In this document: positions 19,265 through 44,815 of the stretch, piece after piece | Position numbering within the stretch: position 1 is the first letter of the stretch | Layout: each line of letters starts with the position of its first letter | Assembly (NCBI GenBank): GCA_012523635.1 | Contig: JAAYTX010000067.1 | Location: 1-54,519, forward strand | Length of the DNA: 54,519 bases | Direction of reading: 5' to 3' | Source of the DNA: Elusimicrobiota bacterium | GTDB taxonomy: Bacteria; Elusimicrobiota; Elusimicrobia; Elusimicrobiales; Elusimicrobiaceae | The notes under the pieces: generated by a model | What the model saw: the letters and a program-made list of their open reading frames with translations, nothing else | Database searches by the model: none | What the model was told of the DNA's origin: nothing | Made by a program: the position numbers and the translations under genes

Positions 19265-19288
19265 TTGCAGGATTTTAGCAAAACAAAC

Positions 19289-24633: not shown

Positions 24634-24777
24634 CCCGACCATCTCAATCCTCCGGGATAGCGTCCCCGGACCCTTTAATTTAGTTTACCTTGCCTCAAAA
24701 GAGATGTCCAGTGAAATGATAAGCCGGGCGAGATGATATCAGGAATTGTGCGGCATGATTTAGATGAAGCCTTAAGG

Positions 24778-26259: not shown

Positions 26260-26273
26260 ATTATATGGCAAAC

Positions 26274-26627: not shown

Positions 26628-26689
26628 ATGCCTTGCCGTGCAATTTAAAACCCCCGGCTTTAACTTCAAGTCGGGGGTTATAAATTGTA

Positions 26690-26775
26690 CGGAGAGGGTG
26701 GGATTCGAACCCACGGAAGTGTTGCCACTTCACCGGTTTTCAAGACCGGCGCCTTAAACCGCTCGGCCACCTCTC
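26690..26775 (-). tRNA. tRNA-Ser (anticodon UGA)
   Basis: The reverse complement folds as a cloverleaf: GGAGAGG acceptor, GCC/GGC D stem, CCGGT-CTTGAAA-ACCGG anticodon arm (UGA), long variable arm, GTGGG-TTCGAAT-CCCAC T arm. CCA is not encoded. Confidence 0.9.
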
Positions 26776-26871
26776 CATTAAAGACAGTCTATTCTAGAAT
26801 TTACGCGCCGTTCAGGCAACGAAAAGCGGGCGGCGGTGTCACCCGCCGCCCGCCCTGACGCTATTGCAAAA

Positions 26872-29497: not shown

Positions 29498-31915
29498 CTA
29501 TTCCCGCGAAAGGAAATCGGAAACAGCTCCGGCGAAAAACTCCGGCATCTCAAGATGCACGGTATGCCCGGCCCCGGGCGCGAACAGCCAGCCTGCGCCT
29601 TTTATGCCGTCGCACATTGCGCCGCTCTCCGGCGGGGTTATAAGTATGTCCAACTCCCCGCTAAGCACCATGGTCCGCGCCTTTATGTCTTTCAGGCGCG
29701 AAGCCGTGTCGTGCTTCTCCATTATCCCCACCAGCCTCGCGAAATTGGCCGGAGAAGAAAGATAGGGATATTCCATCGCCGCCTTCATGGCCATCGGCGG
29801 GAATTGCGGCCTCTCCTGATACATCCGGGAAGACAGAAGCCACGGGAAAAGCTCCTCCCAGAATTCCGCGCTGTAGCCGTCGCGCAAAAGCCTGCGCGCC
29901 CAAAGCGAAAAAAGCGCCTTGTTGCGCGGCGAAGTGCTGGCCGCAGTATCCTCAAGCACCAGCGCGTCCACCATGCCGGGATAAGCCAGCGCGAATTCCT
30001 GCGCAACATAGCCGCCCATGGAATGCCCGGCGATATGCGCCTTCTTAACGCCCAGCGCGTCCAGCACGGCCTTTACATCCGCGGCCATGCCCTTTATGGA
30101 CAGCTCCTTTGGGGTTCCGGGGCATTCGCTCCGTCCCGAAAAGCGGTTGTCCGGGACAATCAGCGTAAATCTTTTAGACAGCGGCTCAAGCACCGGCAGC
30201 CATGACGCCCCGTCCGCGCCAAGCCCGTGCAGCAGCACAAGCGGGCTGCCGCTTCCGCAGGTCTGGTAATAAAGCTTGCAACCGTCATGTTCCACAAATC
30301 CCATATCATGCTCCTTTGCGGTGTCCCGTACGCCTGGCAAAGCCTTCATGGCAAGATAGACGCCGTTGGTCCAGCCAAAACCGTCCTGCCCGGGGTATTC
30401 CCCGCCTCCGGCTTCAAGCCCGGTGTCTTCCACATTGTACTTTTCCATCATCTTACCGGTTTTAAGGAAAACCTTTTCATTGAGCGCCGTCCAGCGCCGC
30501 GCCGCCTCAAACGCAAGGCCGTCCTGCCCGTAATTCAGCAATCCGCGCACCGCAATCCACTGAAGCGGCGCCCAGCCGTTTGGCGCGTCCCACTGCTGGC
30601 CCGTATGGACAAGAGTAGTGGCAAACCCGCCGGATTTTAGGAAATGTTCTCGCAAAACCATGGCGGCGGGTGCGGCCCGCTCAACGGGCGCGAGCTGAAG
30701 GAAAAACGGGGCCATGCCCGCCAGCGTCAGCTTCCCGGTGCGCTTGCCGGACACGAAATCAAAATCGGTGTAGAAAGACTGTTCCTTGTCGTACATAAGG
30801 CCGTTCACAGCCTTTTTACGGCTTTCGGCCCGGCGCAGATAAAAAGCCGACTTCGCGGCATCGCGCACCTTATAATAGTCATGCAAAGTCATTTCCATGT
30901 CGTAAAGCAGGCAGTTGAGGTCTACCGGCAGAAGGCTGGTTGTCTTGGCAGTGGACAGAGTTTTGCCGTCTGCGAACCAGCGGCTTGAAAAATCCATGCC
31001 GCTTTCCGCCGCCGCGCGGATATCGCGGTAAATGTCCCGCGGCTGGCGTTTGCCACCCTTCGCCGTAGCAATGTCTTCGGCATAGGCTTCTGGCCTTGGG
31101 GTGTCATTGTCGTCCCAATAACGGTTCAGCAGCGCACCCCCATATTTTACCGCACGCCTGAAAGCCTGCCCGTTTTTCTTCAGCTTCTCTGCGCCGTCCA
31201 TCCAGTAGGCGTACTCTTTTTCAATGGCAGGAACATATGCCGCCAGCAGGGACGGGTCGTCGCGGGCTTTTACCAGCAGTTTCACCAGCAGTGTGAAATA
31301 CGGCGGCTGGGAACGGCTCAAGTAATACGTCCTGTTGCCATTTGGAATATGACCGTAAGTGCTTATAAGATAGGCGAAATTATCGGCCAGGCCGGTCATC
31401 AGCCGGGTCTGCCCGTCCTGCGCCAATCCCAGCGAAGTAAAATAGGAATCCCAATAATAAATCTCGCGGAAGCGCCCGCCCGGAACCACATAAGGATGCG
31501 GCAAGGCCAGCAAAGAGCCGCCGCCCGCACTGGCGTCAGCCGGACGCTCAAGCAACCTCCACAGAGAGCTTACGCGCTCCCGCGCAGAAGTCGCCGTGCT
31601 TGCCGCCACTTCAGCACGCGAGGACGGCGGCAATATGAAGCTTTCCGACACGAATTTTTCAAGCGAAAATCCGGGGACGGATTTCTCTTGTTCATATGCC
31701 GCCATTACTTCAGCCGGGGATTTAAGAGGCCGGGCATCAGGAAAAGTCTTGCTGTCCTTGAACAATCCGGAAAGCTGGACGCGGCTGAACAGTTCTCCGT
31801 AAGCTATGTCCGGCGGAAGCACCTGTTCAGCGGCGCGGGCCGGAACAAGCGCGGCGGACAATAATGCAGTAAACAGCAGACCGCGCCAAAACGATGTTTT
31901 GATTCCGGATTTCAT
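29498..31915 (-). CDS. periplasmic trehalase (GH37) fused in frame to a C-terminal alpha/beta hydrolase domain
   Basis: Signal peptide MKSGIKTSFWRGLLFTALLSAALVPARAAE (ATG 31913-31915; the track uses TTG 31924). GH37 signatures PGGRFREIYYWDSYF and QWDAPNGWAPLQW are present. From the internal Met at 30302-30304 (MGFVEHDGCKLYY...HGLGADG...GHSMGG...) a complete 268-aa alpha/beta hydrolase follows with a GxSxG nucleophile elbow. Confidence 0.9.
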   Translation of the reverse strand: MKSGIKTSFWRGLLFTALLSAALVPARAAEQVLPPDIAYGELFSRVQLSGLFKDSKTFPDARPLKSPAEVMAAYEQEKSVPGFSLEKFVSESFILPPSSRAEVAASTATSARERVSSLWRLLERPADASAGGGSLLALPHPYVVPGGRFREIYYWDSYFTSLGLAQDGQTRLMTGLADNFAYLISTYGHIPNGNRTYYLSRSQPPYFTLLVKLLVKARDDPSLLAAYVPAIEKEYAYWMDGAEKLKKNGQAFRRAVKYGGALLNRYWDDNDTPRPEAYAEDIATAKGGKRQPRDIYRDIRAAAESGMDFSSRWFADGKTLSTAKTTSLLPVDLNCLLYDMEMTLHDYYKVRDAAKSAFYLRRAESRKKAVNGLMYDKEQSFYTDFDFVSGKRTGKLTLAGMAPFFLQLAPVERAAPAAMVLREHFLKSGGFATTLVHTGQQWDAPNGWAPLQWIAVRGLLNYGQDGLAFEAARRWTALNEKVFLKTGKMMEKYNVEDTGLEAGGGEYPGQDGFGWTNGVYLAMKALPGVRDTAKEHDMGFVEHDGCKLYYQTCGSGSPLVLLHGLGADGASWLPVLEPLSKRFTLIVPDNRFSGRSECPGTPKELSIKGMAADVKAVLDALGVKKAHIAGHSMGGYVAQEFALAYPGMVDALVLEDTAASTSPRNKALFSLWARRLLRDGYSAEFWEELFPWLLSSRMYQERPQFPPMAMKAAMEYPYLSSPANFARLVGIMEKHDTASRLKDIKARTMVLSGELDILITPPESGAMCDGIKGAGWLFAPGAGHTVHLEMPEFFAGAVSDFLSRE

Positions 31916-31920
31916 TGCGT

Positions 31921-33330
31921 TCAATTACCGAACAACAGATGGTATCCGGCCTTGGCCTGGCGCAGTAACGCGGTGAACGAGCCTATTTTAAAAAGCCTTT
32001 TCACCAGATACGAGGGCCGGAAGTAAAAGCCCAGATATGCCTTGCGCTGAAGGGCCTCCAGTTCCTCCCTGCCATAAAGGCCGGATGCGAACGGCGGCAG
32101 TATTTTGGCCGGCGGCGCTTTAGCCACGCCGCGCCAGTAGCCCTCTTCCCCGCTTTTAAGCCCGTCCTCGTAAATCTTGATGCCCGGGAAAAGCGTGGTG
32201 ATGCCGAACTGCACGTATTCCGGGTCCAGCTCACGCGCGAAGGCCATGGTTTTTTCCATCTGCTCCCGCGTTTCGCCGGGATAGCCCAGCATGAAGTCTA
32301 TCAGCACCTCAAGCCCGGCCTCCTTGGACATTTTGACGGTGCGCCGCGCCTGTTCCACTGTTATGCGCTTGTTCATGGCCTTAAGAATCTCGTCGTTGCC
32401 GTTTTCTATGCCGTACTGTATGCGCATGCAGCCGGCGCGGCGCAGGGCGTCCAGCATCTCGCGGTCCACGGTGTCCACCCGGCTTCTGACGTCAAACACT
32501 ATGCCCAGGCGTCTTTTTTCAAGCGCGGCGCAGATTGCCATGACGCGCTTTTTTTCGGCCGTGAATATCTCGTCGAAAAAGAAAATTTCGCGTATGCCCA
32601 GCTTCACGCACTCCTCAAGCTCGGCAAGCACGCTTTCAGCCGAACGGCTGCGGTAGCGCCCGCCGTACTGCACAAAGCAGAAGTTGCACCGGAAAGGACA
32701 GCCACGGCTTGTCATCAGCGTGGTGCTTACCTTGTCGCGCCCCACTATGGAATGGTAGCGGTCCACATGCGTCAGGTCCCGCGCAGGGAAGGGCAGCGAA
32801 TCCAAATTCTCCAAGAGCGGGCGGCGCGGGTTGCATACCGCAACCCCGTCTTTTTTGTGGCAAACGCTTTGGACAGCCGACATGTCGCCCCGGCTTTCGA
32901 GGCAGTACAGCAGTTCCTTTAAGCTTTCCTCGCCCTCGCCTATTATGGCGTAATCAACTCCGGGCAAAGCTACAGTCTCAGCCGGAAAAAGCTCTATGTG
33001 CGGCCCGCCCAGCACAACCGGCAGGCCAACCCCGGCTGTTCTAAGAGCCTGCACAAGCTGGTAAACGATATGGATGTTGAATGAAGTGGTGTAAAACCCA
33101 AGCACATCTGGCCGTTCGCGGCCTATGCGCTTTATGATGGCCTCGGTGGCAAGACCCTCTATCTCGGTGTCCAGTATGGCGGCGCGGTGGCGGCTTTTCG
33201 CCCGCAGGTAAGCAGCCAGATACATCAGCCCGAGCGGAGGATAGTGGCCAAGGCTCAGGTCCTTGTATTTATCGGGGACGGTGCTGGTAAGGGCGCCCTC
33301 GGAAGAGACGGAGATAAGCAGTATGTTCAT
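31921..33330 (-). CDS. cobalamin-binding-domain radical SAM enzyme (class B), paralog 4
   Basis: N-terminal Rossmann-like B12-type segment (PPLGLMYLAAYLRAKS...RPDVLGFYTTSF...LPVVLGGPHIELFPAE), then SRGCPFRCNFC (CxxxCxxC). ATGA overlap with the upstream GT2 gene. Confidence 0.85.
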   Translation of the reverse strand: MNILLISVSSEGALTSTVPDKYKDLSLGHYPPLGLMYLAAYLRAKSRHRAAILDTEIEGLATEAIIKRIGRERPDVLGFYTTSFNIHIVYQLVQALRTAGVGLPVVLGGPHIELFPAETVALPGVDYAIIGEGEESLKELLYCLESRGDMSAVQSVCHKKDGVAVCNPRRPLLENLDSLPFPARDLTHVDRYHSIVGRDKVSTTLMTSRGCPFRCNFCFVQYGGRYRSRSAESVLAELEECVKLGIREIFFFDEIFTAEKKRVMAICAALEKRRLGIVFDVRSRVDTVDREMLDALRRAGCMRIQYGIENGNDEILKAMNKRITVEQARRTVKMSKEAGLEVLIDFMLGYPGETREQMEKTMAFARELDPEYVQFGITTLFPGIKIYEDGLKSGEEGYWRGVAKAPPAKILPPFASGLYGREELEALQRKAYLGFYFRPSYLVKRLFKIGSFTALLRQAKAGYHLLFGN

Positions 33331-34295
33331 TTTTTAACCAGCCAGAAGGCCAGCCCTCCCCAGGCACAGCCTGCCGCCCAGCAAAAGCCGCGCAGATAAA
33401 GGAACGGGAACATATAAAGCATTGTGAGGTCCGAGGACGCGCGCAGGGCAAATGCCGCCGGGGCGTATTGAAGCGCGGCCCCCAACAGGTTAAGCGCCAG
33501 CCACCATTTCCACAGCGCCGGGACAAACAGGCACAGCGGCAAAGCCAGCATGATAAGGAAAAACAGCGGCGGCTGAACCGCGTCGCGCACGCCGCTGTAA
33601 TCGTCGCGCCCCAGGCGGCGCGGATGCCGCTTCATCAGCCGCATAATCCAGTAGCCGCGCCAGAACTGCTGACGCAGGAAGGCGCGCGTACTTTCGGGAA
33701 AATAGTGCCCCACGCGGGCCTCGCGCGTGAAGCGCAAAACACAGCCCGCTTCGGTGAGACGGTAGGTGAAATCGGCGTCCTCTCCGCAGGCTATGCGGAA
33801 AGACTGGTCGAAGCCGCCGAAACGCTCAAGCAGGCTTTTCCTCACCGCAAGGCTGAAAGTGCCCAGATAGCGCACCCTGTCCGGCAGGCGGCTATGGCGG
33901 AACTGTATCTCGTAATGTATGCAACGTGCGGCGAGGCTGTGCGGGTTCATTATGCCGTAAGTGCCGCCCGCCGCGCCCACTTCGTCGGAATCAAACATGG
34001 CCAACAGTTTTTCCACCCAGTCTTTTTCCGGGACGCAGTCGGAATCCGTAAAGAAAACCAGTTCGCCGGAAGCGGCACGCCAGCCCGCGTTGCGGGCCGT
34101 GGCCGGACCCGCATTGCTTTGGCGCAACAGCTTCACCCCGGCGAAACCGCGCGCCAGTTCGGGGGTGTTGTCGGTGGAGCCGTCGTCCACCACTATCACC
34201 TCGCAGGGCAGGGTCTGCGACAGGCAGGCTGTCAGCGTCTGCCCTATCGTCCTGGCGGCGTTATAGGCCGGTATCACTATCGAAACCCTATTCAT
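33327..34295 (-). CDS. family 2 glycosyltransferase with C-terminal transmembrane helices
   Basis: Start at MNRVSIVIPAYNAARTI (ATG 34293-34295, ATGA overlap with the upstream gene; the track extends to 34442). Carries VVDDGSTDNT, FTDSDC (DxD) and an RQQFWRGYW motif where processive GT2 enzymes carry QxxRW. Three to four hydrophobic helices occupy the last ~100 aa. Confidence 0.85.
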   Translation of the reverse strand: MNRVSIVIPAYNAARTIGQTLTACLSQTLPCEVIVVDDGSTDNTPELARGFAGVKLLRQSNAGPATARNAGWRAASGELVFFTDSDCVPEKDWVEKLLAMFDSDEVGAAGGTYGIMNPHSLAARCIHYEIQFRHSRLPDRVRYLGTFSLAVRKSLLERFGGFDQSFRIACGEDADFTYRLTEAGCVLRFTREARVGHYFPESTRAFLRQQFWRGYWIMRLMKRHPRRLGRDDYSGVRDAVQPPLFFLIMLALPLCLFVPALWKWWLALNLLGAALQYAPAAFALRASSDLTMLYMFPFLYLRGFCWAAGCAWGGLAFWLVKK

Positions 34296-35710
34296 GCCTT
34301 GCCCCGCAGGTTGCGCAAAAGCATCTTCATTATGCCGAAGAATCCCGAAAGCCTGTAATTGTAGGCCGAGCCATCCAAGAAAAGCCCCAGCGCCTTCACA
34401 GGATGGCGGCTGTAAAAAGCGAAATAGCAGCGCGACTGCCATTTTTTAAGCTCAGCCAGCGGCAGGGCCGAGGATTGCAGGCAACTGAAATCAAACTGCT
34501 GGTAATCCTCCCAGCGGTCATGCATTATGGACAGCCCGCCCGCGCCTTCCTGCGCCAGGCGCCGCAGTTCCGAGCCGGGATTGGGCACCATAAGCCCGAA
34601 AGACAGCGCGTCGGGGTTCAGTTCCCGCGCGAAAGCCATGGTTTCCTTTATGGTTTCGGGCGTTTCTGTGTAATGCCCCAGGATGAAGAAACAGCGGGTT
34701 TTAAGCCCGGCGGCTTTAAGCAGCTTCACGGCGGCGCGTATCTGCTCCTTGTTCTCGCCCTTCTTCACCACTTCGCGCAGTATGCGGTCGTTGCCGCTTT
34801 CAACTCCGAGCGCCACCCACTGGCACCCGGCCTCTTTCATGGAGCGCAGCAGCGTCGGGTTCACGGCGTCGGCGCGCGTCTCGCAGTCCCAGGCAATCTT
34901 CCTGTTCAGTCCGCGCCGGACAAGTTCCGCGCACATCAGCTCGGTCTCGCCCTTCAAAAGCCCTAGCATCGCGTCGGCGAACTGAACGCGCCGGACGCCG
35001 AATCGTCCGGACAGCCACTGCATCTCGTCCACTATTTTCAGGTGTTTTTTGACCCGTATTTTCCTGCCCAGATAACAGGGGGTGCAGAAATAGCACTGGT
35101 GCGGACACCCGCGCGACGCGCCCAGCGGGAACACCTTGCCGTAATGCTCCAATTCAAACAGGTCCCACGCGGGGAAAGGCAGGGAGTCCAAATCTTCTAT
35201 TACGGGACGCGCCGGACCTTTAACTACCCCCTCCCCCAGCCTGCTCCACAACCCGGCTATGTCGGAAAAATCTTTTTTTCCTTCAGCGCAGGCCCGGGCC
35301 AGCTCCACGGTGGTCAGTTCACCCTCGCCTTCCACCACGGCGTCAAAGGCGGGGAACTCCAGCAGAGTGCGCTCCGGCAGAATTGTGGCGTGCGGCCCTC
35401 CGACGGAAATTGTCAAATCTGGGAATTCGGCCTTCAGCGCCGCGGCCAAAACCCCGGCACTGCTTATTTCGGTGGTGAACGCGGTTATGCCCACAAGCGC
35501 GGGACGCTTTTCCCTCACGAGGGAGAGCACGCTTTCCGGCGTGTTGTGCCCAAGACGCAGGTCTATTATGCGCGGGGAAAGGCCCTGTTCACGACAGTAC
35601 GCCGCCACTGACGCCAACCCCAGCGACGGGACCAGAGACTCGTTGGTGAACAGGTTGTCCTTTTTGGCCAACAGCCTGCGCGAGGGATGCAAAAGCAGGA
35701 TTCCCGTCAT
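34292..35710 (-). CDS. cobalamin-binding-domain radical SAM enzyme (class B), paralog 3
   Basis: Start at MTGILLLHPS (ATG 35708-35710, ATGA overlap; the track extends to 35800). B12-type segment PSLGLASVAAYCREQG...RPALVGITAFTTE...ISVGGPHATILPE, then SRGCPHQCYFC. Confidence 0.85.
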   Translation of the reverse strand: MTGILLLHPSRRLLAKKDNLFTNESLVPSLGLASVAAYCREQGLSPRIIDLRLGHNTPESVLSLVREKRPALVGITAFTTEISSAGVLAAALKAEFPDLTISVGGPHATILPERTLLEFPAFDAVVEGEGELTTVELARACAEGKKDFSDIAGLWSRLGEGVVKGPARPVIEDLDSLPFPAWDLFELEHYGKVFPLGASRGCPHQCYFCTPCYLGRKIRVKKHLKIVDEMQWLSGRFGVRRVQFADAMLGLLKGETELMCAELVRRGLNRKIAWDCETRADAVNPTLLRSMKEAGCQWVALGVESGNDRILREVVKKGENKEQIRAAVKLLKAAGLKTRCFFILGHYTETPETIKETMAFARELNPDALSFGLMVPNPGSELRRLAQEGAGGLSIMHDRWEDYQQFDFSCLQSSALPLAELKKWQSRCYFAFYSRHPVKALGLFLDGSAYNYRLSGFFGIMKMLLRNLRGKA

Positions 35711-37122
35711 TGGTTGCCCTGTTTTTTGATGTAGCGGGCCGCAAACCCGGTGAAATTTTTCCATTCCCTGGCCCAATCGCCGCGCCGCAGGCGCTTCCAC
35801 ACCAGTTGCGGCCTGAGATAATAGGAACGGTAGGCCTTGCGGCTGAACTCGTAAATTTCAGACGAGGAAAGCCCCGGATACGAATACGGCGGCGGCAGCA
35901 TCGGGTTGTAGCGGGACCAGTCTTCCGTGAGCAGATAGCCGCGCTGTTTGAGATAGGAATAGAATTCGGTGCCCGGATGCGGTATGGCCACGCCGAAGGT
36001 CACCAGATCGGCCTCAAGGGTTTTGGCGAAACACAGGGTTTTACGCATGGTGTCGCGCGTCTCGCCCGGCAGGCCGAACACGAAATAAACCAGCACCTCA
36101 AGCCCGGCCCTTTTTGCGTCCGAAACGGCGCGGCGCACCTGCTCCGGCGCCACATGCTTGCGCATAAGCTCCAGCACGTTCGCATCGGCGCTTTCACAAC
36201 CTATGTTCACGGCGGTGCAGCCCGCCGCCTTCATCAGGGCCAGCAGTTCCGGCGAAAGGCAGTCGGCCCGGGCGTTGCAGGTAAAATTCATGCCCAGGTT
36301 CTCGGCAATCATGGCCTCAAACAGCTCGCGGGCGTGCTCGGAGCGGTTGAAGCCCCCCTCGAACGGGAAGCGCAGTTCGCGCACCCCCATGCGCTTAAGC
36401 TCGCGCAATTCCTTCATAAAAGCGGAAACACCGCGGTGCCTCAACCGACCGTAAAAGCAGGCAGAACACATGATACATGGCGGCTGGTTTACACAGCCGC
36501 GCGAAAAATAGGTTACAGCCATCGGACCGCGCTTCATGAACGGGTCGCGGTAGAGGTTCAGGTCCAGCAGATCGTGGGACGGGACTCCCAAATCGTCCAG
36601 GCGCTCTATCGGCGGGGCCGCAGGGTTCAGCCGGGACACGCCGTTCATGCGATAGGCAAGGCCGGGCACCAGTTCCGGACTTACGCCGCGCACCAGTTCC
36701 AAAACGGTGAATTCGGAGTCGTTGGGCACAGCGTAATCAAGATTGGGGTTCAGCGCCAAAGTCTCAAGCGGAAGGGCGTTTACATGGGTAGACGTCACCG
36801 CCGTAAGAATGGACGGCGACACGCTTTTTGCGATATCGGCCACGCGCAGGTCGTGGTAAAGGGTGGGAGTCGAGGCGGTGAACAGCACCAGTTTGGGCGA
36901 GGCTTTTTCCAGTGCCGCCTTCACGGCGTCAAAAGAAAGGCGGGCCGAATTGGCGTCGAGCAGTTCCACGCTGAACCCGCGCCCCCGCAGAAGCCCGGCG
37001 ATAATCATCAGGTCCAGCGGCGGCCAGGCCATGTCGGCCTTGAAGGTGCCGATGCTGCCCAGCGTGCGCAGGCTGCCGAAGCCGCTTGCGGCTGGAGGCT
37101 CCACCAGAAAGACATCAGCCAT
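35707..37122 (-). CDS. cobalamin-binding-domain radical SAM enzyme (class B), paralog 2, non-canonical Cys cluster
   Basis: B12-type segment WPPLDLMIIAGLLRGRG...PKLVLFTASTPT...AVTSTHVNALPLE. The cluster region reads SRGCVNQPPCIMCSAC, that is Cx5Cx2C(x2C), instead of CxxxCxxC. I verified this at nucleotide level at 36457-36495. Confidence 0.8.
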   Translation of the reverse strand: MADVFLVEPPAASGFGSLRTLGSIGTFKADMAWPPLDLMIIAGLLRGRGFSVELLDANSARLSFDAVKAALEKASPKLVLFTASTPTLYHDLRVADIAKSVSPSILTAVTSTHVNALPLETLALNPNLDYAVPNDSEFTVLELVRGVSPELVPGLAYRMNGVSRLNPAAPPIERLDDLGVPSHDLLDLNLYRDPFMKRGPMAVTYFSRGCVNQPPCIMCSACFYGRLRHRGVSAFMKELRELKRMGVRELRFPFEGGFNRSEHARELFEAMIAENLGMNFTCNARADCLSPELLALMKAAGCTAVNIGCESADANVLELMRKHVAPEQVRRAVSDAKRAGLEVLVYFVFGLPGETRDTMRKTLCFAKTLEADLVTFGVAIPHPGTEFYSYLKQRGYLLTEDWSRYNPMLPPPYSYPGLSSSEIYEFSRKAYRSYYLRPQLVWKRLRRGDWAREWKNFTGFAARYIKKQGNQ

Positions 37123-38545
37123 GTTTGCGCCCCCGCCCCGACAGATATGACACGAAACTTTTCAGCCCGTAAATCTTGCGCAGGAGGTCTCCGGCCGACT
37201 CAAGATTGAAAATCATCCTCAAAATCTGGGACGGCCGGAAATAAAACTCTCGCAGGCCGCGGTCTATTAAGGCGTCTATCTCGGCCTTGGAAAGCTGGGG
37301 ATAGCTCAACAAAGTTATCTGCTCCAGCTCCGGCGACACCCACTCCCGCCAGTCATGCGGCACCAGAAACCCCTCGCGTTTGGCCCAGTCGTAAAGCATC
37401 GTGCCGGGATAGACGCAGATGCCCGAGAACTGCACGGTGTCTAGCGGCAGGCTTTTGGCGAACTCTATGGTTTTGCGGGCGCTTTCCCGGGTCTCGCCTG
37501 GCGCGCCCACCATGAAACAGCCGTGCAGGGTGAAGCCCAGTTTGGCGGCACGGGCGGCGAAAGTGCGGGACTGCGCCAGCGTTATCCCCTTGCGCACGGC
37601 GTCCAGCGCCTCCTGAGTTCCGAACTCAAACCCCACCATGAGCATGCGGCAACCCGCCTTGCGCATAAGCGGCAAAAGCTCCAAATCAAGGTCCACGCGC
37701 GTGTTGCAGCTCCAGGTTATTTTCAGGCCGCGGCGAAGAATCTCCTCGCATACGCCGCGCACGTGCGCGGGCGAGGCGGTGAAGGAGTCTGTCTCGAACA
37801 TTATCTCGCGCAGCTGCGGGAACAGCCTCATGTCGCTTTCCATCTCGTCCACTACAAGCGCCGGACTGCGCATGCGCAGGGCATGCCCGCCCAGTATAGG
37901 CGTATCGCGGCAGAAGATGCAGCTGCCGTGGCAGCCCCGCCCGGAGATAAGCGTCAGGAAAGGAAAACGCTTCCCGGCGTCCCTGTACCATTCGGGTTTT
38001 ATATGATGCCAGGCAGGGAAAGGCAGTTCGTTCACGTCCAGCGGCCGGCGCTCACCGGTCCGCACATATTCAGCGCCGCGCATAAACGAAATCCCGGCTA
38101 TATTTTCAAGGGAAGCGCCGGAAGCTATGTCGCGCAAAGTGAAGTCATACTCGCCGTGGGCTATTATGTTTCCGTCCGCGCCCGGCAAAGCCAGCGTTTC
38201 CCGTGCAAGCGCGCTCACGTGCGGGCCTATCAGCACAGTCCTTGCGGCTCCGCATTCCCGCGCCAGAGCGGCGTACTCCAAATCGTTGTAAATGGACGGG
38301 GTGGTGGTGTGCATCACGGCCATTTCTGGCCGGAAGCGTTCAATTCCCGCGCGCACCGACTGTCTGTCCAGGTTAAGGGCGGCGGCGTCCAGGAACAGCA
38401 GTTCGTGCCCGGCACGCTCCAGCACTGCGACCGCGATGAGCATCCCGTCCGGATGCCGCTGAACGCGCCCGCGGGACTTGGCCGCCCACCGCGCCGAACG
38501 ACAGAAATCCGTCCCGTATGCCGGGTTTAGGACCAGTATCCTCAC
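37115..38545 (-). CDS. cobalamin-binding-domain radical SAM enzyme (class B), paralog 1 (HpnJ/BchE-like N-terminus)
   Basis: GTG start with a GTGA overlap with the DUF2304 gene. MRILVLNPAYGTDFCRSARWAAKSRG...FRPEMAVMHTTTPS...VLIGPHVSALARE, then GRGCHGSCIFC. Confidence 0.85.
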   Translation of the reverse strand: MRILVLNPAYGTDFCRSARWAAKSRGRVQRHPDGMLIAVAVLERAGHELLFLDAAALNLDRQSVRAGIERFRPEMAVMHTTTPSIYNDLEYAALARECGAARTVLIGPHVSALARETLALPGADGNIIAHGEYDFTLRDIASGASLENIAGISFMRGAEYVRTGERRPLDVNELPFPAWHHIKPEWYRDAGKRFPFLTLISGRGCHGSCIFCRDTPILGGHALRMRSPALVVDEMESDMRLFPQLREIMFETDSFTASPAHVRGVCEEILRRGLKITWSCNTRVDLDLELLPLMRKAGCRMLMVGFEFGTQEALDAVRKGITLAQSRTFAARAAKLGFTLHGCFMVGAPGETRESARKTIEFAKSLPLDTVQFSGICVYPGTMLYDWAKREGFLVPHDWREWVSPELEQITLLSYPQLSKAEIDALIDRGLREFYFRPSQILRMIFNLESAGDLLRKIYGLKSFVSYLSGRGRKHG

Positions 38546-38898
38546 TTCCGCTCCTCTTTGACGGCCTCAAGTTCGCGCTCTAGCAGGGCTATGCGCTGCG
38601 CCAACTCCTTCTGCCTGTTTGTCAGGCGCGAAATAACTGCGGAAAAATGCAGCACTATCAAAAGCAGAAAAAACACACCGAAGAAAAATAAGGCGGACGC
38701 AGGCGCGATCAGCCCCAGCGCGCGGGTAAGCCTCAGCAAAAGGCCAGGGAACACAGACAACAGGAAAAGCACTGCCCCGGTGCACATCCACAGCCACGAA
38801 TACTCTTCATTCAGCTTGCGGCGGCGCACCAATTCGAAAGTTATGATTATCAGTCCAAGGCTGAAGACCACGCCAAGCACTATGTTTTGAATCGGCAT
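38542..38898 (-). CDS. DUF2304-like small membrane protein (GT2 partner)
   Basis: 118 aa, three to four TM helices followed by a C-terminal amphipathic coil (RQKELAQRIALLERELEAVKEE). It lies immediately downstream of a GT2 gene with a TAATG overlap, which is the usual DUF2304 context. Confidence 0.7.
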   Translation of the reverse strand: MPIQNIVLGVVFSLGLIIITFELVRRRKLNEEYSWLWMCTGAVLFLLSVFPGLLLRLTRALGLIAPASALFFFGVFFLLLIVLHFSAVISRLTNRQKELAQRIALLERELEAVKEERK

Positions 38899-39653
38899 TA
38901 TTTCTCCTCCGGACGCGCGGGCTTGGCCCGCAGCAGCGTGACGCTGATGGACAGGAACATCTTGAAAACGTAATAGAAAGCGGCCATGCCGTGATGCAGG
39001 GGCAGGGGCTTGCGGCTGTGGCGCATGGAAACCGGCACCTCGCGTATGCGCAGGCCCGCCGCGTGCGACAATATTATCAGGTCGGCATCCGGATAGCTGG
39101 TGGGGTAGAACTCCGGCAGGCTGTAGAATTCTATAACCTTGCGGTTGGCGGCGCGGAAGCCGGAAGTGGAATCCGTAATGCGCAGGCCGGTAAGCAGGCT
39201 GGCCAGCGCGTTGAACAGCGCCATCCCCACACGCTTGGCGGCTGTCGGCCTGTAATCGGCGTTCTTCAGGAAACGGGAGCCTATGGTGAGGTCGGCCTCG
39301 CCGTCCAGGACAGGGCGCAGCAGCGCGGCTATGTCCGCAGGGTCGTGCTGGCCGTCGGCATCCAACTGCACCACGAAATCGTAGCCCTTGCGCATGGCGT
39401 AAATATAGCCGGTATGGCGGGCCGCCCCATCTCCGAGATTGAACGGGTGGCGCAAGACTTTCAGGCCGTTTTCGCGCGCGACTGCTGACGTGGCGTCGGA
39501 AGAGCCGTCATCAACCGCCACGACGTCCACGCCCGGACAGTTGGCCTTCAGTTCCCGGCACAGTTCCGGCAGGTAGGCAGCCTCGTTATAGGCCGGCAGC
39601 AGCAGCAGGACACGCTTACCGGGCGTATTGGGCGCCGAACTTTTCATATTCAT
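38898..39653 (-). CDS. family 2 glycosyltransferase, polyprenyl-phosphate sugar synthase-like (DPM1/GtrB/ArnC type)
   Basis: LLLPAYNEAAYL, AVDDGSSDAT, VQLDADGQHDP (DxD), TIGSRF and TDSTSGFRA are the conserved blocks of the dolichyl/undecaprenyl-phosphate glycosyltransferase subgroup. Confidence 0.8.
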   Translation of the reverse strand: MNMKSSAPNTPGKRVLLLLPAYNEAAYLPELCRELKANCPGVDVVAVDDGSSDATSAVARENGLKVLRHPFNLGDGAARHTGYIYAMRKGYDFVVQLDADGQHDPADIAALLRPVLDGEADLTIGSRFLKNADYRPTAAKRVGMALFNALASLLTGLRITDSTSGFRAANRKVIEFYSLPEFYPTSYPDADLIILSHAAGLRIREVPVSMRHSRKPLPLHHGMAAFYYVFKMFLSISVTLLRAKPARPEEK

Positions 39654-40911
39654 TCAAAAGCTTTTCAACCGGATATGGATTGGCCTTAATTTTTTTCTTC
39701 AATCCGGCATAGCGATGGGCTTCCGTATAAAGCAATGAATAGAAGCCCCCAGAAGCGATTTTACAAATGTTTGCGCCGTATTGGGATGACGAAAGCCCGT
39801 CGAAACGGATGCGGAATAGGAAGAAATTAGGCAGTCCCGTATCCACATATTCGAAATGCCTGGCAAAAAACCCAGGCTCGAAAATAGGGGAAATCACGTC
39901 TCCGGGGCAGCATGTCATATAATCAAAGCAAAGATAGTTGATTCCGGCTTTCCTTAATTCGCTCATAATAAGCCCGCTGTCTGTCAGATAAATCGAAGGC
40001 GCTCCGGTTATCACCGCCTGCAGCAACTGCGGCTTTGTATAAACCCGCTGGATATTAAAGATATAAAACACGCGGTCGCCCTCTCCAAGCACCGAATTCA
40101 AAAAGGAAACCTTGTCCGCAGTGGAACGGCCGAGATAGGAAGCCAGCGTGGTTCTCCGGGCCAAAAAAGCCGCGTTGATTCCATCATCTTCCCGATTGAA
40201 CAACCATGGAAGAGCCCATGAAAACAGGCCCGCGGCAGCCTCACGTGCCGCACGCACAAAAACTGCCCGGGACGGAGGCCGGTTCAGCCAGGCCGAAGAC
40301 CCGCCCGGAGCATGCAGGTCGTCAGGTGGCAGAAAAGTCCTTGCCCCATCCTTCGCGCCACTCCCCGGCTCCACGCGCCACCGGTTGAAGAAGGCCTCGC
40401 GCGTGAAGAAAAATTTGCGCGCGCCCACATACACCGTAACACTGCGCAGTGCCGCGGCATCCTGCACCCTTAGTTTCAGCCCTGTCAGCCAGCCAGCCAC
40501 GCGGGGCCCCATGGAAGCCGTCCAATAGGCTTCATTGTCTTTAACCGCGCAGGCGCCAAGATGAGCGAGTTTCACCGCCTGTTCCGGGGGGCGTTCAACA
40601 TTGTTGCATGCATAGGTTCTTTCAATCAGCCTCCTGGCATCCTCGCGGGGCAGAGGGTCAGGCGGTTCGGAATCATCCTGGCGGCAGGCGCAAAGCATGG
40701 CTAAAGGAGGCAGATATTCCAGACCATTAGCGCCCTGCGCCGAGACTGCAAGGTCCGATGGCGCAGGTTTAGCGGAAAGTCGCACCAGCACAAGTATCGG
40801 TTCGGCGATTCCGCGCCCGGTGCCCATCAGGGAAAGAAATCTCCAGCCGAAAGCGGCAATCAAAACAATGCAGCCGCCCGCCAGCAGCCCACGCCAGTGA
40901 AAGTTCCTCAT
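39616..40911 (-). CDS. membrane-anchored extracytoplasmic protein, paralog of the C-terminal domain of the 42401-44815 product
   Basis: One N-terminal TM helix (LLAGGCIVLIAAFGW). The C-terminal ~170 aa align by eye with the C-terminus of the fused protein: FLNSVLGEGDRVFYIF / FLNSRLEPGEKVLYFF, PIFEPGFFARHFEYVDTGLPNFFLFRI / PLFEPDFFSRHFIVVETGLPHFYLFRI, ANPYPVEKLL / ANPYSPEKML. ATGA overlap with the upstream gene. Confidence 0.7.
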   Translation of the reverse strand: MRNFHWRGLLAGGCIVLIAAFGWRFLSLMGTGRGIAEPILVLVRLSAKPAPSDLAVSAQGANGLEYLPPLAMLCACRQDDSEPPDPLPREDARRLIERTYACNNVERPPEQAVKLAHLGACAVKDNEAYWTASMGPRVAGWLTGLKLRVQDAAALRSVTVYVGARKFFFTREAFFNRWRVEPGSGAKDGARTFLPPDDLHAPGGSSAWLNRPPSRAVFVRAAREAAAGLFSWALPWLFNREDDGINAAFLARRTTLASYLGRSTADKVSFLNSVLGEGDRVFYIFNIQRVYTKPQLLQAVITGAPSIYLTDSGLIMSELRKAGINYLCFDYMTCCPGDVISPIFEPGFFARHFEYVDTGLPNFFLFRIRFDGLSSSQYGANICKIASGGFYSLLYTEAHRYAGLKKKIKANPYPVEKLLNEYEKFGAQYAR

Positions 40912-42413
40912 CGCGCCACCTCGTCAAGCCCAGGCCTCTTCGCCAGGCACTGCGACAGGAAATAAAACGAGGCGATATACAACGCCGGCAGAGTTATCCA
41001 CGCAAATCGCGACAGAACCCCCCCGCTGACCATGTTCGGGAAAAAGAGCAGCAATGAATACAACATGAAAAAAAGCATGAAGTACATGGCCGCCACCTCG
41101 GCGCGCCGTATAAAGGCAAAACCGATAAACAGCATACCTCCCAGCAAGCCGGCATGTTCAAACGCGAAAGAAAATGGAAATACGGCATAGCTCCATGCCC
41201 CGGGAGAATACCTCATGTCAAAAAACATCAGCAGACGCTCACCTATGAAATCGTTTATCACGTACGGGCTTCCTGAAGCATGGAACAGTTTGACAAAAAA
41301 AGGATTCCCCGGATAGATACAACCGGTGTGATGGAAATTCCAAGCCGGGAACGCGCCAGCCGCAGCCGCGCATGCCGCCAATGCCAGCAGATAACGCTTA
41401 GGGAATTCCCGCCAGAGACCCGAAAACAAGACAATCCCTCCGAACGAGGCGGCGGCAGGCACTATTCCGGCCATTGAAACAGACGACATCAATCCTATGC
41501 CCGCAAAAGCCAAGCAGTGCCTATTTGGTTCTCGGAACAGCATACCCTCAACGATTGATATAAACGCAAAACATTCCAGGAACATCAAATACAGCCTGTC
41601 ATGCGCCAGGGAAAAGAAGTCATTGCTGGACAATGCAGGGGTAGCGAGAAACGCAGCGGCAGCGGCAAAGGCCAGCCAGCGCGGGAGCCGCACCCCAAGA
41701 AATTCGTAGATGCCAAGCGACATGCAAAACAACAGCATCAGGCCGAACATTTTCACAATGCCCGGATTAGAAATGGTAATAAGCGCCGACGCAACAACCG
41801 AATACTGGTGCAGCGCGAACAAATATGTCACCAGCGCAGGCTCAACCGCAACGCCATGATGTTCAGAAAAGAAAATGTAAGTCGGCATATAACCGCCGGA
41901 AACATCGCCGAGCGATTCGCCGTAGGAAACCGGCGACAGTGCGCTCAACAGGCAATGATAGGCCGCCCAAACAATGACAATAAGCACAAGCGCGGACCAC
42001 AGGCGGCTTTGGGGCAGGCGCGGCCAGGACACGCCGCTGTCGCCGAAAAGCAGGAACGCCAGCAACAACGCCAGCACGACGCCGCGATAGGCCAGCCCGG
42101 CAAAAAAGAAAGGCAGTAAACAAATATTGAATAGGGCGACGCCGCAGAAGAAATCCAGCGCAAGGCCGCTTTCCAGCCCGAGCAGGCGCATTGCCCTGCG
42201 CCCGGCAAACGCCACAGCCGCAAGGACCGGCACCAGCAGAGCAAGGTTGAGGAGTATCTCAGTCCAGTCGCAGTAAGCGTTGAAATCGGCGTGGGCGGCA
42301 AGCGACATATAATTATAGCCGCCGGATTTTATCGCAGCCGCGCACAGCAACAGCCACGCGCTAAGCGCCAAACGCATTTTGCGGCCCCCAATCAGAGTTA
42401 TCAAAGCGGACAT
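40908..42413 (-). CDS. polytopic membrane protein, GT-C-like, paralog of the N-terminal domain of the 42401-44815 product
   Basis: 501 aa with more than 10 hydrophobic helices. Aligns by eye with the fused paralog: SYGESLGDVSGGYMPTYIFFSEHHG...YSVVASALITISNPGIVKMFGLMLLF vs SYGESLGDAANNTFYVPMLFARNHG...YEVLGSALISLSNPGVVKIFGLSLLL. The first loop is acidic (HADFNAYCDW). Confidence 0.7.
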   Translation of the reverse strand: MSALITLIGGRKMRLALSAWLLLCAAAIKSGGYNYMSLAAHADFNAYCDWTEILLNLALLVPVLAAVAFAGRRAMRLLGLESGLALDFFCGVALFNICLLPFFFAGLAYRGVVLALLLAFLLFGDSGVSWPRLPQSRLWSALVLIVIVWAAYHCLLSALSPVSYGESLGDVSGGYMPTYIFFSEHHGVAVEPALVTYLFALHQYSVVASALITISNPGIVKMFGLMLLFCMSLGIYEFLGVRLPRWLAFAAAAAFLATPALSSNDFFSLAHDRLYLMFLECFAFISIVEGMLFREPNRHCLAFAGIGLMSSVSMAGIVPAAASFGGIVLFSGLWREFPKRYLLALAACAAAAGAFPAWNFHHTGCIYPGNPFFVKLFHASGSPYVINDFIGERLLMFFDMRYSPGAWSYAVFPFSFAFEHAGLLGGMLFIGFAFIRRAEVAAMYFMLFFMLYSLLLFFPNMVSGGVLSRFAWITLPALYIASFYFLSQCLAKRPGLDEVAR

Positions 42414-44815
42414 AAAAAGTGTTGTCGCCTATATGATTCAAAGGCAGCCAGCATTTTCTCCGGCGAATAGGGATTAGCCTCCAGCCGTTTTGCCGAAGCG
42501 GAATATTTCTTCAGCGGCAGGTACAGCTCGCAGAAAAACCCGCTTTTGCCCAGCGCTTCCCGGTTTTCGTCAAGCGCCTTGCCCTCCAGCCCGGCATAGT
42601 GAATGCGAAAAAGATAGAAATGCGGCAAGCCTGTCTCGACCACTATGAAATGCCGCGAGAAAAAGTCCGGCTCGAACAACGGGGTAAGGGCGTCCAGTAT
42701 AAGGGACTTCCCGGGGTCACCATCGGCCAGCCCCCATTTATTGTCGAAGCATAACGCGGACAACCCCTCATTTTCCAGCAGCGCCAGCGCCTTCCCGCCG
42801 TCTTCAGCGTATATGCCGGAAACAGACGCCACGGTGGAAGGCTGATACTTTTCAACAGCCGAATATATTTTCTGCGCGTGGAAGAAATACAGCACCTTTT
42901 CCCCAGGTTCGAGGCGGGAATTCAAAAAAGCATCTTTGTCGGCATTCTCGGGGCCAAGATACTGCCCCAGCGTGTCCAGACTGAACAGATAGCGCAACTT
43001 ATGCCCGACAGAACAATGGCAGGCGTGGCGTCCAAACGCCATGCCAAATACAAAATCAGCAGTCTGCGCGGCGGACGAACACAACGCGCCAGCTCCCAGG
43101 CAGTCCGCGTCGGGCTTTTGTGAAGCGCTAAACACGCATGCGGCATTCCCCCTGCGGCAGCCATCGGCTACAAAACCCGCATACAGCGCCAGCACAGCAG
43201 CCGCGGCTATCACGGCATATTGCCGCCACCTCACTTTTGCGGACTGCGCCTTAAACGCCGCCAGGAACTTGGCCGCGCGCGGGGAATTGTCCGCCAACCC
43301 CTCATACTCCGTAAAAACACCGGGACCGCGAAGCAACGCGCAGGTCACATAAAAGCCATGCAGTATAAGCAGGGAAAGCAAAGGAAACATATCCCACAAA
43401 AACCGGCCGTGCTCCTCCCCGCGCGTTATCTGCGGAAAAAACAGGGGCGCCGCCAGAAAGGGGAGAATGACAAACGGCGCCGAAATTTTTGCCAGTGGGT
43501 TCAGAAAATATAACGCCGCCAGGACAATGCCGAATGCCGCCAGGCCGAAATTGGCATACAGGTACTTCGGGACGAAATAAAGCCACCTGTCGGCAAAAGA
43601 CACCCCGGCTCCTCCGAAAAACAAACCTGTGCGCTGGGCCAGATAGTCGTTGAACACGTCGCCGCCCGATACCGGGAACAACTTGTTAAGGAACACCAGC
43701 ACGGGGGCCGGAGAGCCGGTATTTATGTAATTCCAAACCGGGAACACCGCGGCCAGCGCCGCCGCGCCAAGCATGGCCCCCAGATAACCGCGTACGCGGC
43801 CCCGCCACAAGGCAGGCGACAGCAGCACCGCCATGAGTGCCGCCATCGCAGTGAACACCCCCCCGGCCGAAACGCCCAGCAACACCCCGGCGGAGAGCAA
43901 ACCGACATATTGCCAGCGGGCTTCTTTTTCCAAAGCCCCTTTCAGCATGCAGGAAAACACAAAAAACGTCAGAAACAACTGATAGGCCCTTTCATGCGCA
44001 AAGGAAAACCACGCGTCATTATAAAGCGCGGGCGCGGTCAAAAACAATACCGCAGCCCAAATGCCGTCGCGGCCGCGCAAATCCGAATCAAGCGTCTGCT
44101 TCACGCCGACCGCAGTCAGCAACAACAACGACAGCCCGAAGATCTTCACGACACCGGGATTTGACAGCGAAATCAGCGCGGAACCCAGCACCTCGTACTG
44201 GCAGAACTTTGACAATATCGCCCCAAGATACGGGGCAAAGAATGCTCCGTGGTTCCGGGCAAACAACATCGGGACATAAAAAGTGTTGTTAGCCGCGTCG
44301 CCCAGTGATTCGCCATAGGAAACAGGCAACAGCGCATTGACTAGATGAAGCAGGGCCGCGGCCCCAAACAGTAGCAAAGGCAGCGCGGGACGCGTGCGCA
44401 AAGCCGAGCGCAGAGCTGGGGCTTCCGAACGCAGGAGAACAAGAAGGGTTATAAACAGCGCAGCAAGAACCGGCGGATAAAAGAGATTCAGGAAAAACAG
44501 AGGCAGCAGCAGAACGTTCAGGGCCAGCAGGCCCAGCCCGGCATGATGGTAAAAGCCCGCGCCCGGCAGGCGCAGGCCGTCTACCAGACGCTTGCCCAGC
44601 ATAAAACACGCCGCCAGCACATTAAGCACAAGGGCTACATTAAGCAGCGCGGCGCACCAGTCGAAATGCGACGAAAAATCCAGGCTATCTGCTGCCATGC
44701 TGAAGCGCTTCCCGCAAAGCCATGACAGCGCCAGCACGCACGCTAGAGAAAGCGCGGGCAGCCACTGCAATTTTTTATTTTCGGTATCGTTCATCCGCAG
44801 CGCGAAAAGCCGCAT
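42401..44815 (-). CDS. large polytopic membrane protein, GT-C-like N-terminal domain fused to a C-terminal extracytoplasmic domain
   Basis: Start chosen at MRLFALRMNDTENKK (ATG 44813-44815; the track extends to 44932). About 12-14 TM helices, then a further TM (YAVIAAAAVLALYAGFV) and a ~280-aa C-terminal domain. The architecture resembles YfhO/ArnT-type GT-C enzymes. The fold is not verified. Confidence 0.65.
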   Translation of the reverse strand: MRLFALRMNDTENKKLQWLPALSLACVLALSWLCGKRFSMAADSLDFSSHFDWCAALLNVALVLNVLAACFMLGKRLVDGLRLPGAGFYHHAGLGLLALNVLLLPLFFLNLFYPPVLAALFITLLVLLRSEAPALRSALRTRPALPLLLFGAAALLHLVNALLPVSYGESLGDAANNTFYVPMLFARNHGAFFAPYLGAILSKFCQYEVLGSALISLSNPGVVKIFGLSLLLLTAVGVKQTLDSDLRGRDGIWAAVLFLTAPALYNDAWFSFAHERAYQLFLTFFVFSCMLKGALEKEARWQYVGLLSAGVLLGVSAGGVFTAMAALMAVLLSPALWRGRVRGYLGAMLGAAALAAVFPVWNYINTGSPAPVLVFLNKLFPVSGGDVFNDYLAQRTGLFFGGAGVSFADRWLYFVPKYLYANFGLAAFGIVLAALYFLNPLAKISAPFVILPFLAAPLFFPQITRGEEHGRFLWDMFPLLSLLILHGFYVTCALLRGPGVFTEYEGLADNSPRAAKFLAAFKAQSAKVRWRQYAVIAAAAVLALYAGFVADGCRRGNAACVFSASQKPDADCLGAGALCSSAAQTADFVFGMAFGRHACHCSVGHKLRYLFSLDTLGQYLGPENADKDAFLNSRLEPGEKVLYFFHAQKIYSAVEKYQPSTVASVSGIYAEDGGKALALLENEGLSALCFDNKWGLADGDPGKSLILDALTPLFEPDFFSRHFIVVETGLPHFYLFRIHYAGLEGKALDENREALGKSGFFCELYLPLKKYSASAKRLEANPYSPEKMLAAFESYRRQHFLCPL

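Follow-up and report, generated by a model that had tools for sequence, protein, structure and literature searches.

A compact operon from an Elusimicrobiota bacterium that may join radical SAM tailoring to envelope glycosylation through polyprenyl-phosphate-linked sugars

The 54,519-nucleotide stretch of Elusimicrobiota DNA analysed here (contig JAAYTX010000067.1 of GenBank assembly GCA_012523635.1; "the window" below means this whole stretch) carries an operon of eleven consecutive minus-strand genes, numbered G1 to G11 along the direction of transcription, that runs from 44815 or 44794 to 29498. It brings together four class B (cobalamin-type) radical S-adenosylmethionine (SAM) enzymes, a predicted polyprenyl-phosphate sugar synthase with its small membrane partner, a second glycosyltransferase of family GT2, and membrane proteins of the GT-C glycosyltransferase fold. 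The interpretation that we favour, with modest confidence, is that the operon specifies an envelope glycosylation pathway that proceeds via polyprenyl-phosphate-linked sugars, with radical SAM tailoring taking place before transfer by the GT-C enzymes.

The steps of such a pathway can be proposed as follows: G4, activated by G5, would make a polyprenyl-phosphate monosaccharide at the cytoplasmic face of the membrane, as judged by homology. G9 and the radical SAM enzymes G6, G7, G8 and G10 would then extend and tailor a lipid-linked or nucleotide-linked sugar intermediate, the likely radical SAM reactions being C-methylation and/or a ring rearrangement of the HpnJ type. After flipping, G1 and the G2+G3 pair would pass the product to an acceptor at the periplasmic face (suggested by their fold, their predicted topology and the gene content of related loci), and this acceptor is probably a surface polysaccharide or another envelope glycoconjugate.

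Organization of the operon

The open reading frame (ORF) map and a start-codon scan reproduce the eleven coupled minus-strand genes of the original prediction, together with every junction that it listed. ATGA overlaps lie at 33327-33330, 34292-34295, 35707-35710 and 40908-40911, and a GTGA overlap lies at 38542-38545. G4 and G5 overlap by 1 nt (TAATG at 38898), G6 and G7 by 8 nt (37115-37122), G1 and G2 by 13 nt (42401-42413) and G3 and G4 by 38 nt (39616-39653), and a 5-nt gap at 31916-31920 precedes the last gene, G11. Two of the starts are ambiguous. G1 may begin at 44815 or at 44794; the database gene call is 797 aa long, and a 77%-identical homolog aligns from the Met at 44794. G2 may begin at 42377, as in the 489-aa representative P0003, in which case the 13-nt overlap would become a 23-nt gap. 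The G+C fraction of the operon, 0.56-0.61, is the same as that of the remainder of the window. Consensus scans for promoters and terminators gave site counts that are not clearly over the shuffled expectation and are silent on the transcript ends. The domains expected of these proteins were all found with Pfam, namely B12-binding (PF02310) plus Radical_SAM (PF04055) in four proteins, PF00535 in two and DUF2304 in one.

A probable polyprenyl-phosphate sugar module

G4 (38898..39653, minus strand; 251 aa) is a GT2 protein of the polyprenyl-phosphate sugar synthase type (PF00535, 82.6 bits), and its nearest solved structures are DPMS, ArnC and GtrB. Its top NCBIfam models are PpgS, AglJ and dolichyl-P-hexose transferase, all with scores below their cut-offs; because its score on the PpgS equivalog model is 109.6 bits and the cut-off is 370, we do not assign it a sugar specificity. 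G5 (38542..38898, minus strand; 118 aa) is a DUF2304 protein (PF10066, 90.6 bits) and thus a small membrane partner of the GacJ/Rv3632 type; an exact look-up of its sequence in public assemblies gave no match. G4 is a DPM1/GtrB-like GT2 gene followed directly, with a 1-nt overlap, by the DUF2304 gene G5, and such a pair has been defined by experiment in GacI/GacJ and PpgS/Rv3632.

In the synthesis of the N-acetylglucosamine (GlcNAc) side chain of the Streptococcus pyogenes group A carbohydrate, GacI makes GlcNAc-P-undecaprenol, GacJ binds and stimulates GacI, and the GT-C enzyme GacL hands the sugar on to the polysaccharide beyond the membrane (bioRxiv 10.1101/180810). PpgS/Rv3632 is the Mycobacterium tuberculosis counterpart of GacI/GacJ (same source), in which the DUF2304 protein likewise binds and stimulates the GT2 and the pair feeds a GT-C enzyme. 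G4, G5 and G1/G2 make up the same set, and the logic of a GT2 enzyme, a small partner and a GT-C enzyme that had been predicted for the operon agrees with both systems. The co-encoded G4 and G5 are the one feature that suggests, by analogy, that G1 and G2 may use a polyprenyl-phosphate-linked donor. Radical SAM enzymes and a further membrane GT2 are present in the operon and lacking from the Gac and PpgS systems. The GT-C proteins of the operon belong to a new family with a C-terminal domain and apparently four extra N-terminal helices, and the operon has no equivalent of the flippase GacK. The second membrane GT2, G9 (33327..34295, minus strand; 322 aa; PF00535, 118.8 bits), has C-terminal membrane helices, and its best NCBIfam match is an MftF-like model at 153 bits, below the cut-off.

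A conserved core, G4-G10

The conservation of the operon was followed from G6 by scanning one genome per GTDB species and identifying the neighbouring genes by tblastn and ORF clustering. The scan gave 61 loci, nearly all at 53-74% identity to G6 (there is one outlier at 35%), from Elusimicrobiota, Omnitrophota, Nitrospirota, Planctomycetota, several deltaproteobacterial lineages, Brachyspira and others. A metagenome-assembled genome of another Elusimicrobiota bacterium (locus L009) has the genes G4-G5-G6-(radical SAM)-G7-G8-G9-G10 in the order of the window, six of them at 55-68% identity and the G7-like gene at 35%, and there the core is followed by a GT-C gene of the PMT_2 family and another radical SAM gene. 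Parts of the core are found elsewhere: G6-G7-G8 are retained in L011, L012, L014, L021 and L025; G4-G5-G6-G7...G9 in L013; G6, G10 and G9 in L015 and L017; and a minimal set of G6, G9, G4 and G5 in L010, L014, L020, L022, L059 and L067. Orthologs of G4 adjoin a DUF2304 gene in L009, L010, L013, L014, L022, L059 and L067. G9 is the commonest neighbour of G6 (17-21 of the 61 loci), and the two form the tightest conserved pair, being adjacent in L020, L026, L036, L039, L049 and L050.

The other neighbours of the G6 orthologs include genes for RmlA-, RmlB- and RmlD-like proteins, UDP-glucose dehydrogenase (Ugd), DegT aminotransferase, GT4 glycosyltransferases and SAM methyltransferases. A Wzx-like flippase gene lies directly upstream of the G6 ortholog in L010 and L014, and Wzm/Wzt-like ABC-2 transporter genes are found near G6 orthologs. 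GT-C proteins of other families also stand beside G6 orthologs, either PMT_2 proteins (families f23, f31, f32 and f45) or a tandem AglB-like pair (L059 and L067), so that the GT-C partner varies by lineage among PMT_2, AglB-like and family X proteins, family X being our name for the family of G1 and its paralogs in the window.

G1-G3 and G11 are absent from all of the G6-ortholog loci. The predicted conservation of the gene combination therefore holds for G4-G10, whose order is kept in L009 and parts of which recur elsewhere, and does not hold for G1-G3 and G11. The operon is thus a composite of a seven-gene core, G4-G10, which is apparently horizontally mobile, a lineage-specific family X trio, G1-G3, and a trailing gene, G11.

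Four class B radical SAM enzymes

The radical SAM proteins are encoded on the minus strand by G6 (37115..38545), G7 (35707..37122), G8 (34292..35710) and G10 (31921..33330); they are 469-476 aa long and about 30% identical to one another in pairs. All four have an N-terminal B12-binding domain followed by a Radical_SAM domain, both over the Pfam gathering score, as had been predicted. The B12-binding match is borderline in G6 (32.4 bits against a gathering score of 32.1) and stronger in G8 (84.3 bits, with Radical_SAM at 78.8 bits) and G10 (83.2 bits, with Radical_SAM at 111.8 bits). The [4Fe-4S] cluster motif CX3CX2C reads CHGSCIFC in G6, CPHQCYFC in G8 and CPFRCNFC in G10; in G7 its place is taken by the variant CX5CX2C (CVNQPPCIMC, residues 210-219). 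This variant is kept by the G7 orthologs of L011, L014 and L025 (55-58% identity); a G7-like protein of L012 that is 49% identical does not have it.

Each of the four enzymes has its own orthologs, at 52-69% identity. Those of G8 are found at 52-59% in L009, L011, L012, L014, L021 and L025, and those of G10 at 55-58% in L009, L015 and L017. Because the ortholog sets are separate, sequence comparison indicates that the four are ancient, distinct and non-redundant paralogs that travel together.

Are these enzymes more simply explained by a known type of lipid chemistry? G6 belongs to an HpnJ-like clade: it scores 309.8 bits over the full length of the HpnJ model (TIGR03471), and the next family scores 119 bits. 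G7, G10 and G8 score 204, 181.9 and 162.3 bits on the same model, and all four scores lie below its cut-off of 577.6 bits. In the hopanoid side-chain pathway (HpnI/HpnK/HpnJ) and in the archaeal calditol synthase (Cds) system, a membrane lipid receives a hexosamine or a hexose from a GT2 enzyme, and the lipid-linked sugar is proposed to undergo ring contraction by a radical SAM enzyme (PMC13459092). The operon resembles these systems in the similarity of G6 to HpnJ and in its pairing with the GT2 protein G9, and the tight G6-G9 pair mirrors HpnI-HpnJ. It is conceivable that the operon remodels membrane-lipid head groups: a lipid glycosylated by G9 would have its sugar ring contracted by G6 to a cyclitol, the other radical SAM enzymes would add methyl groups or cross-links to the sugar or lipid, and the GT-C proteins would decorate the lipid from the periplasmic side with the G4/G5 product as donor, the outcome being a new glycolipid and not the decoration of a polysaccharide.

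We regard this explanation, the main rival of the favoured one, as rather unlikely. G6 remains far under the HpnJ cut-off, G9 has no match to the HpnI model in NCBIfam, and the operon has no HpnK deacetylase. The hopanoid genes shc (squalene-hopene cyclase), hpnH, hpnG, hpnI and hpnK were found neither in the window nor among the annotated neighbours of the G6 orthologs, and those loci abound instead in nucleotide-sugar genes, Wzx genes and ABC-2 polysaccharide genes. To our knowledge, neither Elusimicrobiota nor Omnitrophota are known hopanoid producers. Relative to the hopanoid pathway, the operon adds three radical SAM paralogs and a polyprenyl-phosphate sugar/GT-C module. A hopanoid role had been called unsupported at the outset; it is not altogether beside the point, given the position of G6 in the HpnJ-like clade.

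A rare family of GT-C proteins

G1 (42401..44815, minus strand; 804 aa) is predicted to be a GT-C-fold membrane glycosyltransferase with a globular C-terminal domain of about 200 aa attached through a transmembrane helix. G2 (40908..42413, minus strand; 501 aa) is a paralog within family X that consists of the membrane (GT-C) module alone, and G3 (39616..40911, minus strand; 431 aa) has a single N-terminal transmembrane anchor and the family X C-terminal domain. G2 aligns with residues 78-539 of G1, its membrane half, at 35% identity (E 3e-48), and the C-terminal ~190 residues of G3 align with the C-terminal domain of G1 at 37% identity (E 2e-36). These alignments confirm, at the sequence level, that G2+G3 is a split copy of the fused G1, as had been proposed.

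None of the three proteins has a match in Pfam or NCBIfam. Neither G1 nor G2 matches PMT_2 (PF13231), STT3 or AglB in Pfam at E <= 0.01, nor does G1 match PMT_2 at E <= 1; a single distant member of family X matches PMT_2 at E 2.5e-5. Word-indexed searches, whether G1 or an alignment of 15 family sequences was the query, brought up the protein of the window itself, a single relative at 77% identity and nothing else, probably because hydrophobic words swamp the index. The family was recovered by an exhaustive profile search of 1.84 billion proteins, which gave 27 representatives that stand for clusters of 1-3 sequences, nearly all of them metagenomic. The sole close relative (77%) is encoded on a contig of 3.4 kb, together with a G2 homolog. 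A GTDB scan with G1 and a sequence-profile search of the PDB with family X gave nothing.

An AlphaFold2 model of G1 built from a 30-sequence alignment has a mean predicted local distance difference test score (pLDDT) of 84.7 and a predicted template modelling score (pTM) of 0.87. When it was compared with the PDB by Foldseek, the top ~28 matches were all GT-C enzymes (E 2.5e-5 to ~0.7), including STT3 and the oligosaccharyltransferase (OST) complex (E 2.5e-5 to 1e-3), ALG9, PglB, ALG12, AftA, ArnT, AftB, DPY19, EmbA/B/C and PMT, and transporters appeared only at E > 1 with a probability of <=0.05. Profile-profile comparison by hhalign relates family X to the PMT_2-type proteins of the related loci with 98.1% probability (E 1.1e-13), residues 218-494 of family X being aligned with PMT_2 positions 94-370. 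The model and the profile comparison together confirm the GT-C-like character that the original prediction had given these membrane proteins; G1 and G2 can thus be placed in the GT-C superfamily as membrane enzymes of a new and very rare sequence family. The same two results rule out that they are transporters or O-antigen ligases.

Because the alignment with PMT_2 is offset, about four additional N-terminal transmembrane helices are implied for family X. A loop of the form P164...E169-S170-x-x-D173 is invariant across 15 family members, with E169, S170 and D173 directly after the helix that precedes the region matched by hhalign, and G2 retains the family-invariant PVSYGESLGD, FSxAHxR and RF motifs, including the E/S/D residues of this loop. 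The loop seems to occupy the position of the first external loop of GT-C enzymes, and it would be periplasmic according to the positive-inside rule, as read from where Arg and Lys occur among the loops. The C-terminal domain is less well described. The AlphaFold2 model of G3 is poor (pLDDT 50.1) and confident just for residues ~250-430, and a fold search with it gave no informative match; through one family member alone (P0020) the domain has a remote link to DUF7024, of which a literature search found no mention. G1 shares with STT3/PglB/AglB and with PMT_2/ArnT a membrane module followed by a C-terminal extracytoplasmic domain; it differs from them in its low identity (10-15%) and in the four N-terminal transmembrane helices that it appears to add.

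This two-domain layout raises the question of whether family X acts on proteins, as an OST-like enzyme that would put a glycan modified by the radical SAM enzymes on secreted or S-layer proteins. This would be a variant of the favoured pathway with a different acceptor. The best Foldseek matches of G1 are STT3 and PglB, in alignments of 600-800 columns that extend into the C-terminal part. In two uncultured bacteria the tandem AglB/STT3-like proteins (L059 11963-16659 and L067 14155-18809; AglB_L1 E 1e-11, AglB_core-like E 1e-8) are encoded directly 3' of a G6-methyltransferase-G9-G4-G5 module. We nevertheless judge protein glycosylation improbable. The hhalign comparison that ties family X to PMT_2 is negative with the AglB-like proteins (16% probability), and the TM-scores of the G1 Foldseek matches are modest (0.33-0.38). 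No WWDxG-type motif was noticed in the translated C-terminal part of G1, where no systematic search was made. G4, moreover, is of the type that makes polyprenyl-monophosphate sugars, whereas OSTs use pyrophosphate-linked oligosaccharides.

Genomic contexts of family X

Family X provides a second starting point, independent of G6, from which the association can be viewed. There are 11 independent family X contexts, the window included, and radical SAM genes adjoin family X in 6 of them. Besides the four class B genes of the window, there are two radical SAM genes in L004, four in L005 (where a radical SAM-SPASM gene is present), one of class B in L006, two of class B in L007, and three of class B plus two SPASM genes in L072/L073. 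These radical SAM-linked loci usually also have a GT2 gene, a SAM methyltransferase, an epimerase and a second GT-C gene (PMT_2 or YfhO-like). Their G+C contents span 33-57%, and the association is therefore not an accident of a single lineage. As compared by sequence, it is an association of enzyme classes and not of orthologs. Family X is not confined to such surroundings, since in L070 (3504-12694) it lies beside genes of nonulosonic-acid type (NeuB, CTP_transf_3 and PglD-like) and a teichoic-acid-type glycerophosphotransferase gene, with no radical SAM gene.

A 1163-aa ankyrin-repeat protein is encoded within the cluster of family X, B12-type radical SAM and YfhO-like genes at L072 9090-12581 and L073 7000-10491.

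Weighing the proposed pathway

The recurrent embedding of class B radical SAM genes among GT2, DUF2304 and GT-C genes, seen both from the G6 loci and from the family X loci, makes a functional link between these enzyme classes very likely. Two further explanations were weighed. In the first, the operon would be a secondary-metabolite cluster or one for a ribosomally synthesized and post-translationally modified peptide (RiPP), in which the radical SAM enzymes modify a peptide or small molecule ahead of its glycosylation and the role of the membrane proteins is export or immunity. G8 and G10 do have sub-threshold NCBIfam matches to ApyD, PhpK, KedN5 and RiPP C-methyltransferases, and radical SAM-SPASM genes are present in the family X loci L005 and L072. 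We find this explanation very hard to sustain, since the operon has no short precursor-like ORF and essentially zero intergenic DNA in which one might lie, the window has no nonribosomal peptide synthetase or polyketide synthase genes, the membrane proteins are of the GT-C type with transporter matches at negligible probability, and the conserved neighbours are surface-glycan genes. RiPP and aminoglycoside readings had already been rejected in the original prediction, and they are rejected here also, the window having neither a precursor-like ORF nor an aminotransferase/dehydrogenase set. The second, a chance packing of glycosylation and radical SAM genes without a functional link, has in its favour that G1-G3 and G11 never accompany the G4-G10 core in other genomes and that many G6 orthologs are solitary, but it is scarcely credible given that L009 repeats the order G4-G5-G6-G7-G8-G9-G10, that parts of the core are found again in four or more additional phyla, that radical SAM genes adjoin family X in several contexts of widely different G+C content and that start and stop codons overlap at most of the operon's junctions.

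Several points also weigh against the envelope glycosylation pathway itself. We know of no class B radical SAM enzyme that acts on a polyprenyl-phosphate sugar. The closest solved relative of G6 is AprD4, a member of this group that itself probably does not use cobalamin, so that B12 dependence is not assured, and a search of the window found no cobalamin riboswitch. None of the operon proteins reaches an NCBIfam equivalog cut-off. The operon (29498-44815) includes no recognisable flippase gene, whether GtrA, Wzx or other. Many G6 orthologs, for example those of Omnitrophota, lie among housekeeping genes and have no GT2 or GT-C neighbours, and the radical SAM proteins near family X in other genomes are just 25-32% identical to those of the window and are not their orthologs. 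Lastly, the E169-S170-x-x-D173 residues of family X are presumed, from their sequence position, to be equivalent to the catalytic residues of known GT-C enzymes.

The general scheme nonetheless has precedents. In the ArnC/ArnD/ArnT pathway undecaprenyl phosphate is loaded with a sugar, which is modified on this lipid and, once flipped, passed on by a GT-C enzyme. That pathway and the three-component pentofuranose systems (PNAS 2024, PMC11127046) are precedents for tailoring on the carrier lipid; the tailoring enzymes there are a deformylase or a phosphatase/epimerase, as opposed to the radical SAM enzymes proposed for the operon. The carrier-lipid/GT-C logic is thus already known, and what would be new is a radical SAM tailoring layer, a GT-C family whose two-domain layout resembles that of STT3 and which exists in fused and in split form, and a radical SAM subfamily with the CX5CX2C motif. 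The claim that no characterised pathway unites the two logics stands: full-text searches of openly accessible literature found no paper that joins cobalamin-type radical SAM enzymes with undecaprenyl- or polyprenyl-phosphate sugars or with GT-C enzymes.

A broader proposal, which we put forward more tentatively, is that class B radical SAM enzymes form an unrecognised tailoring layer that yields C-methylated, ring-contracted or rearranged sugars, or a modified carrier lipid, for installation outside the membrane by a dedicated GT-C enzyme, and that the core is a mobile cassette of this kind distributed across mostly uncultured phyla. If the model is true, lipid-linked intermediates are the route by which bacterial surface glycans gain radical SAM chemistry on unactivated carbons, and new sugar structures such as C-methyl or carbocyclic units would be expected in the envelopes of the window organism and of Elusimicrobiota, Omnitrophota, Nitrospirota and Planctomycetota. 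The majority of class B radical SAM enzymes are still without an assigned function, and the four enzymes of the operon, with their separate orthologs, would be a compact set in which to look for new class B reactions.

The terminal gene G11 and its probable link to trehalose metabolism

G11 (29498..31915, minus strand; 805 aa) encodes a secreted fusion of a GH37 trehalase and an α/β-hydrolase, as originally predicted. The Trehalase domain (PF01204, 455.6 bits) occupies residues 54-526 and covers positions 2-507 of the 512-position profile, essentially its full length; Abhydrolase_1 (94.2 bits) occupies residues 561-792, and a signal-peptide-like N-terminus is visible in the translation. The further idea that this trehalase-esterase is a working part of the system is unsupported, since no G11 homolog was found in any of the 72 related loci. 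G11 is probably co-transcribed with the rest of the operon. It is not a conserved member and most likely rides along as a passenger connected with trehalose metabolism. A link to trehalose turnover is the more economical explanation because an OtsA-like trehalose-6-phosphate synthase (22767-24245; GT20, 441 bits) is encoded elsewhere in the window, behind a Na+ riboswitch. This riboswitch, of the nhaA-I class (RF03057, 43.8 bits against a gathering score of 37), lies at 24625-24673 on the minus strand, ~380 nt upstream of the OtsA-like gene, and suggests sodium-responsive control of trehalose synthesis.

The fusion of the two domains in G11 hints at a substrate such as acylated trehalose.

Other features of the window

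The organism is probably diderm, since the window encodes AcrB, a TolC-like OEP and the trehalase with its signal peptide. A LOG gene borders G1, and an AlaRS gene lies at 51375-54035. No Pfam match was obtained for four consecutive ORFs of 215-294 aa at 17693-21245 (minus strand), for a 461-aa ORF at 11042-12427 (minus strand) or for a 581-aa ORF at 45592-47337 (plus strand). Between 24000 and 26000 the G+C fraction falls to 0.475, as compared with 0.55-0.62 elsewhere in the window. This patch contains an ORF for a hexapeptide-repeat acetyltransferase-like protein (24778-25425) and an ORF without a Pfam match (25714-26427), and it is adjoined by a tRNA-Ser gene at 26689-26777; the patch may have been acquired as a small island.

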